Positions 55,274 to 56,105 of a stretch of 64,000 nucleotides of DNA are shown in pieces; the first letter of the stretch is position 1, and each line of letters begins with the position of its first letter. The position numbers and the translations under genes are program-made. The notes beneath the pieces are model-generated. The model was not told where the DNA came from. It saw only the letters and a program-made list of their open reading frames with translations, and did not search any database. This stretch comes from a phage, in the sequence record PV946933.1. One strand, given 5' to 3'.

Positions 55274-55346
55274 TGGGAATTAGCCAAGTTGGTAAGGCAT
55301 AGCATTTTGACTGCTAGATGCAAAGGTTCGAGTCCTTTATTCCCAG
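55274..55346 (+). tRNA. tRNA-Gln (anticodon UUG)
   Basis: cloverleaf read by eye: acceptor tgggaat/attccca, anticodon loop ttTTGac. Confidence 0.85.
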
Positions 55347-55347
55347 C

Positions 55348-55434
55348 GCGAGAATGGTCAAATTGGTAAAGGCACAGCACTTAAAATGCTGCGGAATGAT
55401 TTCCTTGTGGGTTCGAGTCCCACTTCTCGCACCA
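55348..55434 (+). tRNA. tRNA-Leu (UAA), type II, CCA encoded
   Basis: acceptor gcgagaa/ttctcgc; loop cTTAAaa; long variable arm. Confidence 0.85.
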
Positions 55435-55439
55435 AATTT

Positions 55440-55513
55440 GCGGATATCGTATAATGGCATTACCTCAGACTTCCAATCTGATGATGTGAGTTCGATTCTC
55501 ATTATCCGCTCCA
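55440..55513 (+). tRNA. tRNA-Gly (UCC)
   Basis: acceptor gcggata/tatccgc; loop cTTCCAa. Confidence 0.85.
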
Positions 55514-55523
55514 ATTTAATTTA

Positions 55524-55597
55524 CTCCGTGTAGCTCAGTTTGGTAGAGCGCCTGATTTGGGATCAGGAGGTCCAAGGTTCAAATCCTTGTATGGAGA
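55524..55597 (+). tRNA. tRNA-Pro (UGG)
   Basis: tagctcagtttggtagagc D-arm; loop tTTGGGa. Confidence 0.85.
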
Positions 55598-55599
55598 CT

Positions 55600-55689
55600 G
55601 GAGGCGTGGCAGAGTGGTTTAATGCACCGGTCTTGAAAACCGGCAGTCGCTCCGGCGACTCATAGGTTCAAATCCTATCGCCTCCGCCA
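55600..55689 (+). tRNA. tRNA-Ser (UGA), type II
   Basis: acceptor ggaggcg/cgcctcc; loop cTTGAaa; long variable arm. Confidence 0.85.
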
Positions 55690-55694
55690 GTTTT

Positions 55695-55770
55695 GCTGAT
55701 TTAGCTCAGTAGGTAGAGCAACTCACTTGTAATGAGAAGGTCGGCGGTTCGATTCCGTCAATCAGCACCA
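55695..55770 (+). tRNA. tRNA-Thr (UGU)
   Basis: acceptor gctgatt/aatcagc; loop cTTGTAa. Confidence 0.85.
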
Positions 55771-55771
55771 A

Positions 55772-55846
55772 GGCCCTGTAGCTGGAAGGTTCAAGCAAGC
55801 GACTCATAATCGCCAGATGGTGGTTCAATTCCACCCAGGGCCACCA
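55772..55846 (+). tRNA. tRNA-Ile (CAU, lysidine type) or Met
   Basis: acceptor ggccctg/cagggcc; loop cTCATAa. Confidence 0.75.
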
Positions 55847-55859
55847 AATTAAGAATTAA

Positions 55860-55946
55860 GGGGAGTTATCCCGTAGAGGTAGCGGTGTGGACTGTAAATC
55901 CATTGTCATTGCGACTCGGGTGGTTCGACTCCATCACTCCCCACCA
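55860..55946 (+). tRNA. tRNA-Tyr (GUA), type II
   Basis: acceptor ggggagt/actcccc; loop cTGTAaa; long variable arm. Confidence 0.8.
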
Positions 55947-55950
55947 ATTT

Positions 55951-56025
55951 GGATGTGTAGCTCAATGGCAGAGCGATCGCCTGTTAAGCGATTGGTTATA
56001 GGTTCGAATCCTATCACGTCCGCCA
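55951..56025 (+). tRNA. tRNA-Asn (GUU)
   Basis: acceptor ggatgtg/cacgtcc; loop cTGTTAa. Confidence 0.8.
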
Positions 56026-56029
56026 AATC

Positions 56030-56105
56030 CGAGGCATAGCTCAGAAGGAAGAGCAAGGACCTTCTAAGTCCTGGGTCGTAGGTTCGATCCCTACTGCCTC
56101 GACCA
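56030..56105 (+). tRNA. tRNA-Arg (UCU)
   Basis: acceptor cgaggca/tgcctcg; loop cTTCTAa. Confidence 0.85.

Follow-up and report, generated by a model that had tools for sequence, protein, structure and literature searches.

A stretch of phage DNA 64,000 nucleotides (nt) long (sequence record PV946933.1, here called the window) carries a cluster of ten tRNA genes that includes genes for tRNA-Tyr and tRNA-Asn, both of which are missing from phage T4. Comparison with related phages indicates that the locus is the T2-type allele, free of the homing-endonuclease gene segB, of the tRNA and stable-RNA operon of Tequatrovirus, the genus to which the window's sequence assigns its phage. The reading that we favor, at a probability of about 0.85, is that this T2-type operon has two roles, supplying tRNAs for codons that the phage uses heavily and sustaining translation when host defense nucleases destroy host tRNAs.

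ARAGORN, run on the whole window, found ten tRNA genes, all on the plus strand at 55274-56105, and none elsewhere. The order is tRNA-Gln(UUG) at 55274-55347, tRNA-Leu(UAA) at 55348-55434, tRNA-Gly(UCC) at 55440-55513, tRNA-Pro(UGG) at 55524-55598, tRNA-Ser(UGA) at 55600-55689, tRNA-Thr(UGU) at 55695-55770, a tRNA with the anticodon CAU at 55772-55846, tRNA-Tyr(GUA) at 55860-55946, tRNA-Asn(GUU) at 55951-56025, and tRNA-Arg(UCU) at 56030-56105. Successive genes are 0, 5, 10, 1, 5, 1, 13, 4, and 4 nt apart, with tRNA-Gln directly abutting tRNA-Leu. The original prediction, made from the sequence alone, had described ten close-packed tRNAs separated by 0 to 13 nt, with Tyr and Asn among them, and the software recovered that same set. 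The terminal CCA is encoded in eight of the ten genes and missing from tRNA-Gln and tRNA-Pro, again as the original prediction had it. The Rfam tRNA model recognized nine of the ten genes at 59 to 74 bits (gathering score, 29), with tRNA-Asn at 74 bits. An Rfam E-value search of positions 54000-58000 returned tRNAs as the sole RNA family. Sub-threshold Rfam matches to Plastid-ycf2 (on the minus strand), sX4, YrlA, and tRNA-Sec all overlap tRNA genes and were rejected as look-alikes.

The 1.5-kb region of the cluster is 98.5% identical to that of Escherichia phage vB_EcoM_SP1, and more than 1,000 phage records matched it, mostly from Tequatrovirus. The annotation of vB_EcoM_P8 lists the same ten tRNAs, and further records carry either that set or that set plus tRNA-His. 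The architecture is already known, having been published for T2L in 2008 and being annotated, with or without tRNA-His, in T4-like genomes in GenBank.

The position of the cluster, with a trna.2 homologue upstream and homologues of rnaD and rnaC downstream, is that expected for a T4-like operon. The left part, consisting of homologues of the trna.4, trna.3, and trna.2 open reading frames (ORFs) followed by the Gln, Leu, Gly, Pro, Ser, and Thr genes, is syntenic with T4 and 95% identical to it. Individual genes in this part range from tRNA-Leu, which is 100% identical to its counterparts in T4, T2, and T6, and tRNA-Pro, 100% identical to T4 and T2, through tRNA-Gln (98.6% identity to T4) to tRNA-Thr (96%) and tRNA-Ser (95.6%). 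The tRNA-Ser gene encodes CCA as in T2, and a CCAG at this site was reported to be present in T2L and absent in T4 (PMC2330249).

The blastn alignment with T4 continues at 95% identity up to position 55791, 20 nt into the CAU tRNA gene, and resumes at 56472, where rnaD starts. The intervening 680 bp (55792-56471, plus strand) hold the 3' three-quarters of the CAU tRNA gene, the Tyr, Asn, and Arg genes, and an ORF of 116 amino acids (aa), none of it homologous to T4, and this block is allelic to the T4 segment that runs from the 3' part of the Ile gene through segB to the Arg gene. As the original prediction stated, the tRNAs of T4 number eight, with Tyr and Asn both missing; segB, a GIY-YIG homing-endonuclease gene, lies between its Ile and Arg genes. 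T4 also differs in that no CCA is encoded in its Ile gene and in that its Arg gene directly precedes rnaD and then rnaC, with no ORF between. The original prediction described Tyr and Asn as inserted between Ile and Arg, a description that has to be replaced. The CAU and Arg genes on either side are other alleles, only 61% and 50% identical to those of T4, with an entirely different acceptor stem in tRNA-Arg, and the gap in homology reaches rnaD. Thus, the difference from T4 is a whole alternative cassette rather than a two-gene insertion, and the insertion of Tyr and Asn into a T4 backbone was ruled out on these grounds.

The alternative cassette is that of T2 and T2L (AP018813; PMC2330249), in which CAU, Tyr, Asn, and Arg tRNA genes are followed by a 351-bp ORF and then by rnaD and rnaC, and in which segB is likewise missing. 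The CAU, Asn, and Arg genes are each 100% identical to those of T2 (the Arg gene being 50% identical to that of T4 and T6), tRNA-Tyr is 98.9% identical, and the product of the 116-aa ORF is 94% identical in amino acid sequence to that of the T2 ORF at the same position. T2 differs in having a 402-bp ORF in place of tRNA-Thr and hence nine tRNAs to the window's ten, a point on which the window is like T4.

Two further relatives show how this part of the operon varies. Phage T6 is a third mosaic, with the order Gln, Leu, Gly, Thr, T4-type CAU, Tyr, segB, and T4-type Arg. It shares with the window a tRNA-Tyr of 97.7% identity but lacks Pro, Ser, and Asn, and its segB block, directly after Tyr, begins exactly where the Asn gene would start. 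The T6 tRNA-Tyr-segB unit can be amplified via SegB, in contrast to the segB-free cluster of the window. ECML-363, an eleven-tRNA Tequatrovirus, has the same ten genes in the same order at 98.7 to 100% identity, except for Gln (89%), and differs by an insertion of ~190 bp between Asn and Arg that comprises a 114-nt spacer and tRNA-His(GUG). The spacer (locus L003, 2320-2513, with the tRNA-His) holds a GTGACAACTGTCAC inverted repeat.

The preferred recognition site of T4 SegB, GGTTCGAATCCTATCACGTCCGCCAAA, is matched exactly at 56001-56027 (plus strand), where it covers the T arm and the 3' end of tRNA-Asn. The window has no second copy of this 27-bp site, and T2 carries it unchanged. Brok-Volchanskaya et al. 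(2008), who sequenced the tRNA regions of T2L, RB1, and RB3, described the site as GGTTCRANTCC ... CCAR with distinguishing bases G6, A16, G18, A26, and A27 (PMC2330249), and GGTTCGAATCCTATCACGTCCGCCAAA agrees with that description. In their study T2L lacked segB and carried tRNA-Met(CAU), Tyr, Asn, and Arg genes plus two ORFs, and the preferred SegB cleavage site was mapped inside the T2L tRNA-Asn gene (PMC2330249). In crosses of T4 with T2L, 99.6% of the progeny inherited segB and ~1,250 bp of T2L sequence was excluded (PMC2330249).

A tblastn search of the window with T4 SegB did not find segB in the cluster, the lone match being a distant paralogue at 20278-20493. That match falls within a free-standing GIY-YIG homing-endonuclease gene (phrog_314) at 20185-20886 on the plus strand, between two minus-strand genes, whose product shares 50% identity with the N-terminal domain of SegB across 72 aa. 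Because the exact SegB site is present and the cluster is free of segB, the allele in the window is, on the evidence of its sequence, that of a recipient in a known homing system. SegB-dependent exclusion of the segment during coinfection with T4, demonstrated for T2L, is predicted for the window phage from its identical site. In T4, where a CAU(Ile)-segB-Arg cassette lies at the same position, SegB would cut within the tRNA-Asn gene of such a recipient, and homing would overwrite the whole segment.

A census of 50,697 phage records gave the frequencies of the alternative arrangements. The 183-nt Tyr-Asn segment was found with at least 80% coverage in 434 records and as a match of at least 90% identity in 510 records. 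T4 segB gave any match in 183 records and a full-length match in 126. The variant with the 114-nt spacer and tRNA-His between Asn and Arg was found in 216 phage records, and a Tyr-Asn tandem of ~81% identity is present in a more distant Klebsiella T4-like phage. Since records with Tyr-Asn outnumber those with segB, the T4 arrangement is the minority form. From these counts, together with the way in which homing endonucleases spread, we infer that the Tyr-Asn arrangement is no younger than the one with segB.

The tRNA-Tyr gene is of a phage type with a long variable arm. Its best Rfam score, 34 bits, was against the tRNA-Sec model, and its D stem is weak; ARAGORN nevertheless folds it into a full cloverleaf with the anticodon GUA, G1-C72, and A73. 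The E. coli tyrosyl-tRNA synthetase (TyrRS) recognizes the GUA anticodon, the long variable arm, A73, and G1-C72, and the identity elements of tRNA-Asn are the GUU anticodon and a G73 discriminator. The tRNA-Asn of the window is a standard cloverleaf with GUU and G73, so that neither tRNA lacks any of these identity elements. The variable arm of tRNA-Tyr consists of a GUC/GAC stem with a 5-nt loop, AUUGC, compared with a 3-nt loop in E. coli. Identity of tRNA-Tyr is 98.9% to T2, 97.7% to T6, 96.6% to the rV5-like Vequintavirus FFH2, and 78% to T5, the variable and T arms being identical to those of T5, but only 60 to 62% to E. coli tyrT/U/V. The differences among homologues preserve pairing. 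The window has G30-C40 where T2 and T6 have G30-U40, and G29-C41 where FFH2 and a plasmid copy have A29-U41; an exchange between G-U and G-C in the T stem also keeps the pair.

Among 5,426 complete E. coli genomes, no chromosome gave a blastn match to tRNA-Tyr, and tRNA-Asn gave only partial matches below 80% identity to various tRNAs in E. coli genomes. Capture from the host chromosome was ruled out on these results. The low identity to E. coli, the lack of a chromosomal match, and the close phage homologues together argue that tRNA-Tyr is a phage-lineage gene rather than a recent host capture. A phage-type tRNA-Tyr of 94% identity was found on ~110-kb plasmids in 269 of the 5,426 genomes. 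The plasmid gene (locus L011, NZ_CP024264, 3921-4471) lies in an Asn-Tyr-Thr-Ser cluster, and the plasmids are probably phage-plasmids.

The CAU tRNA is labeled Met by the software, and the Ile-CAU assignment of the original prediction appears the more reasonable. This T2-type allele is 100% identical to T2, 98.7% identical to P8, and one base apart from the CAU tRNA of FFH2, in contrast to 61% identity to the T4 tRNA-Ile. Its anticodon stem-loop, gcgaCTCATAAtcgc, is identical to that of E. coli ileX, as are acceptor positions 1 to 5 (GGCCC). Recognition by TilS depends on an ileX-like anticodon arm together with C4-G69 and C5-G68, both of which pairs are present, and the molecule is not initiator-like. 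It is thus probably a tRNA-Ile2 with lysidine that reads AUA, a reading to which the 5.2-fold enrichment of AUA in window ORFs lends indirect support. FFH2 carries near-identical Tyr and CAU tRNAs in a different gene order (locus L010, 1422-2234), a likeness suggesting that unrelated phage families have exchanged tRNA genes.

Codon usage fits the gene content closely. The comparison covered 71 mechanically chosen, nonoverlapping window ORFs of at least 80 aa (19,707 codons) and, as a reference, 99 kb of E. coli K-12 treated by the same procedure. The nine codons most enriched in the window relative to E. coli were ATA (5.2), AGA (5.0), GGA (4.1), TCA (3.5), ACA (3.1), AAT (3.1), TTA (2.8), ACT (2.7), and TAT (2.5). 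Each can be read by one of the ten tRNAs, provided in the case of ACT that U34 of tRNA-Thr(UGU) carries the host modification. Of the codons beyond the reach of the eight T4 tRNAs, AAT and TAT rank highest in enrichment, which agrees with the codon-usage role offered in the original prediction. At the amino acid level Tyr (1.68-fold) and Asn (1.54-fold) were the most enriched in window ORFs, and His (0.54-fold) was the least; the tRNA-His of the eleven-gene form is not obviously explained by codon demand.

The second proposed role is in resistance to defense systems that cleave tRNAs. The variable arm of E. coli tRNA-Tyr is the target of Septu EcB88 (PtuAB), which cuts it at C48/A49 (Chihara et al. 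2026, PMC13096335). T2 resists this system, T4, which lacks a tRNA-Tyr, is sensitive to it, and T6 falls between the two (PMC13096335). The T6 tRNA-Tyr was detected by northern blot, its overexpression rescues infection, and deletion of the T6 tRNA region sensitizes the phage (PMC13096335). T6 escapers arise by SegB-dependent amplification of a 718-bp tRNA-Tyr-segB unit (PMC13096335). A counter-defense role for a T-even tRNA-Tyr has therefore been known since 2026. Because Septu also cuts the T6 tRNA-Tyr, the T-even mechanism looks like replenishment by dose.

A tRNA-Tyr has a comparable function in other phages. The tRNA-Tyr genes of T5 and SP15 counter retron-Eco7 (Azam et al. 2024, PMC11555353; structure paper, PMC12673091), an effect that depends on the longer variable loop; the SP15 tRNA-Tyr is left uncleaved (PMC11555353, PMC12673091). 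The variable arm of the window tRNA-Tyr is distinct from that of the host, the property looked for in a counter-defense tRNA. By analogy with the T6 and T5/SP15 homologues, the window tRNA-Tyr may restore infection on hosts with Septu or retron-Eco7. The analogy with T5 has limits, in that T5 tRNA-Tyr is 78% identical overall, the T5 genes lie in a large tRNA region, and the experiments were made on other alleles.

For tRNA-Asn, the relevant nuclease is AriB of the PARIS system, which cleaves tRNA-Lys, tRNA-Thr(UGU), and, more weakly, tRNA-Asn(GUU) (PMC12409363). The cut falls between positions 40 and 41 of the anticodon stem, beside a UAAU motif; in E. coli tRNA-Asn the cleaved sequence is U36-A-A-U-C/C41, with the cut before C41 (PMC12409363). 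The Lys, Thr, and Asn tRNAs of T5 jointly neutralize PARIS (PMC12409363). In the window tRNA-Asn the corresponding bases are U36 A37 A38 G39 C40 G41, compared with U A A U C C in E. coli. It is reasonable to suppose from this difference that the window tRNA-Asn would resist AriB, and by analogy with T5 it may contribute to escape from PARIS. The window phage and T5/SP15 are alike in having phage copies of nuclease-targeted tRNAs, and G39 replaces host U39 in the tRNA-Asn of the window and in that of T5. The original prediction had raised compensation for host anticodon-nuclease defenses. The broader part of that suggestion stands, as phage tRNA-Tyr counters tRNA-cleaving defenses in T6 and T5 (PMC13096335, PMC11555353). 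The nucleases concerned are not the classical anticodon-loop enzymes, however, as PtuAB cuts in the variable arm and AriB in the anticodon stem at 40/41.

These elements can be assembled into a model. The ten tRNAs, the small ORF, rnaD, and rnaC probably share one transcript that starts at a middle promoter near 55180 and ends at the 56779 terminator. A candidate promoter, found as a consensus match by eye at 55180-55204 (plus strand), consists of TGCTTTA (55180-55186), a 12-nt gap, and TATTAT (55199-55204), and lies ~70 nt upstream of tRNA-Gln; we take it to be of the MotA type from the T4 middle-promoter consensus. A scan for sigma-70 promoters gave nothing beyond shuffle expectation. The terminator is a strong intrinsic hairpin followed by a T run at 56779-56802 (plus strand), the likely end of the tRNA and stable-RNA unit. 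Host enzymes would then process the transcript, with RNase P acting at the 5' ends, trimming at the 3' ends, and CCA addition for Gln and Pro. The Tyr and Asn tRNAs would raise decoding capacity for UAU and AAU, which the AT-rich phage overuses relative to its host, and the same supply would sustain translation when PtuAB (Septu, retron-Eco7) or AriB (PARIS) destroys host tRNAs.

Several considerations weigh against this two-role model. The promoter at 55180 is proposed from its resemblance to a consensus, and E. coli codon usage was taken from a sample of 99 kb. Genome-wide composition would put Lys level with or above Tyr and Asn in enrichment. The gene content, allelic relations, SegB site, codon statistics, and differences from host tRNAs are direct observations on the window; expression, charging, and benefit in the window phage, and any role of tRNA-Asn, would be expected by analogy with homologues. 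What is known for near-identical genes is homing and exclusion of the T2L cassette (PMC2330249) and rescue from Septu by the T6 tRNA-Tyr (PMC13096335). Septu cleaves the T6 tRNA-Tyr as well, and a single copy protects T6 only partly (PMC13096335). The resistance of T2 to Septu could stem from other causes. For PARIS, tRNA-Asn is a secondary target of AriB, and T4 and T7 were rescued without a phage tRNA-Asn (PMC12409363). T-even tRNA regions are also dispensable under laboratory conditions (PMC2330249).

Each of the two roles might alternatively be the only one that matters. If the Tyr and Asn tRNAs served purely to meet UAU and AAU demand, with evasion of defenses incidental, the rank of Tyr and Asn among the amino acids, the place of AAT and TAT outside T4 coverage, and the mapping of all ten tRNAs to the most enriched codons would be accounted for. 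We regard this as unlikely, because the presence of tRNA-Tyr tracks Septu resistance across T2, T6, and T4 and Tyr supply rescues T6 (PMC13096335). The tRNA-Tyr is, moreover, only ~60% identical to that of the host, and a variable arm common to unrelated phages would be unneeded for dosage; and the tRNA-His that the eleven-tRNA form adds serves the least enriched amino acid of all. Conversely, Tyr and Asn (and His) might be kept primarily as nuclease targets, the codon match being a by-product of AT richness. This is conceivable, though we would not bet on it. Published rescue by tRNA-Tyr and by the T5 tRNA-Asn speaks for it, as do G39 and G41 of tRNA-Asn at the AriB motif, the variable arm that tRNA-Tyr shares with T5, and the distribution of the phage-type tRNA-Tyr among 5,426 E. 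coli genomes, 269 of which have it on phage-like plasmids and none on the chromosome. Yet the T6 tRNA-Tyr is still cut by Septu, tRNA-Asn plays a secondary part against PARIS that is not consistent from phage to phage, and the ten tRNAs match the most enriched codons so closely that the match can hardly be dismissed.

Accounts in which the Tyr and Asn genes are newcomers or relics fare much worse. A recent insertion of the two genes, from the host or another phage, into a T4-like eight-gene cluster would explain why the gene order resembles that of T4 plus two. We consider it highly improbable given that the CAU and Arg alleles differ from those of T4, that the nonhomologous block takes in the downstream ORF, and that tRNA-Tyr has no match on E. 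coli chromosomes; the Tyr-Asn form is also commoner than the segB form, and the T4 site is occupied by a homing endonuclease whose target is the Asn gene itself. There is equally little chance that the two genes are nonfunctional passengers, decaying tRNA-like sequences retained by linkage. The D stem of tRNA-Tyr, with a mismatch and a G-U pair, its low Rfam score, and the laboratory dispensability of tRNA regions (PMC2330249) could be taken that way, but both genes encode complete cloverleaves with identity elements, differences among homologues are compensatory or change G-C to G-U, near-identical copies occur in hundreds of genomes, and the T6 homologue is seen on a northern blot and rescues infection.

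The two-role model of the T2-type operon could be extended. More speculatively, and doubtful as it stands, Tyr-GUA, Asn-GUU, and His-GUG, three of the four G34-U35 queuosine-family tRNAs, might form a mobile counter-defense module that is traded among unrelated coliphages. What changes hands would be a phage-type tRNA-Tyr whose altered variable arm is conserved and a tRNA-Asn whose AriB site is altered. The lineages involved in such trade might be the T-even, rV5-like, Felix O1-like, and T5-like phages and the phage-plasmids. The segB polymorphism would then be a balanced one, with Tyr-Asn and segB both kept by the balance between host defense repertoires and SegB homing.

The genes around the cluster show further variation. 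The 116-aa ORF of the T2-type cassette, located between tRNA-Arg and rnaD at 56122-56472 (plus strand), belongs to phrog_3355, a family of unknown function; it has no Pfam or PDB sequence match, and T4 has no ORF at this position. The homologue of rnaD (species 2) lies at about 56469-56583 (plus strand), with ends extrapolated from a blastn match at 56472-56581 that is 77% identical to T4 rnaD positions 4 to 117. The rnaC (species 1) homologue at 56590-56728 (plus strand) is 98% identical to T4 over 139 nt. The divergence of rnaD, which contrasts with the conservation of the adjacent rnaC, starts exactly at the right edge of the cassette.

Beyond the stable RNAs, the terminator hairpin AGCCYCGACCGAAAGGTTGGGGCT occurs twice, at 56779-56802 and 57337-57360, flanking an ORF at 56856-57329. 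This ORF and another at 57455-58018 (both on the plus strand) are paralogues assigned to phrog_2280, and their N termini, MKSYAQFLNE and MKTYAEFLTE, resemble the targeting peptides of internal head proteins. The ~1.2 kb at 56779-58026 (plus strand) is absent from T4 and looks as if cassettes had been shuffled at the repeated terminators. On the plus strand at 53603-54251, just upstream of the trna.4/.3/.2 homologues, are two small genes for internal head proteins (phrog_7673 and phrog_2667), in a region of T-even genomes known to be variable. Farther away, at 1100-5218 (plus strand), are two tandem genes for 685-aa paralogues that resemble Alt, an RNA polymerase ADP-ribosyltransferase (phrog_802; E-values, 1e-263 and 6e-255).

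These results show that the tRNA set of T4 is not the default for its genus. The window phage is predicted to resist cleavage of tRNA-Tyr by systems of the Septu and retron-Eco7 type better than T4 does and to lose the cassette segment when it coinfects with a segB-carrying phage. The points that are modestly new are a possible role of T-even tRNA-Asn (and tRNA-His) against PARIS-like nucleases and the extent to which tRNA-Tyr is shared across phage families. The possible resistance of tRNA-Asn to AriB would be a small and directly testable extension of what is known.

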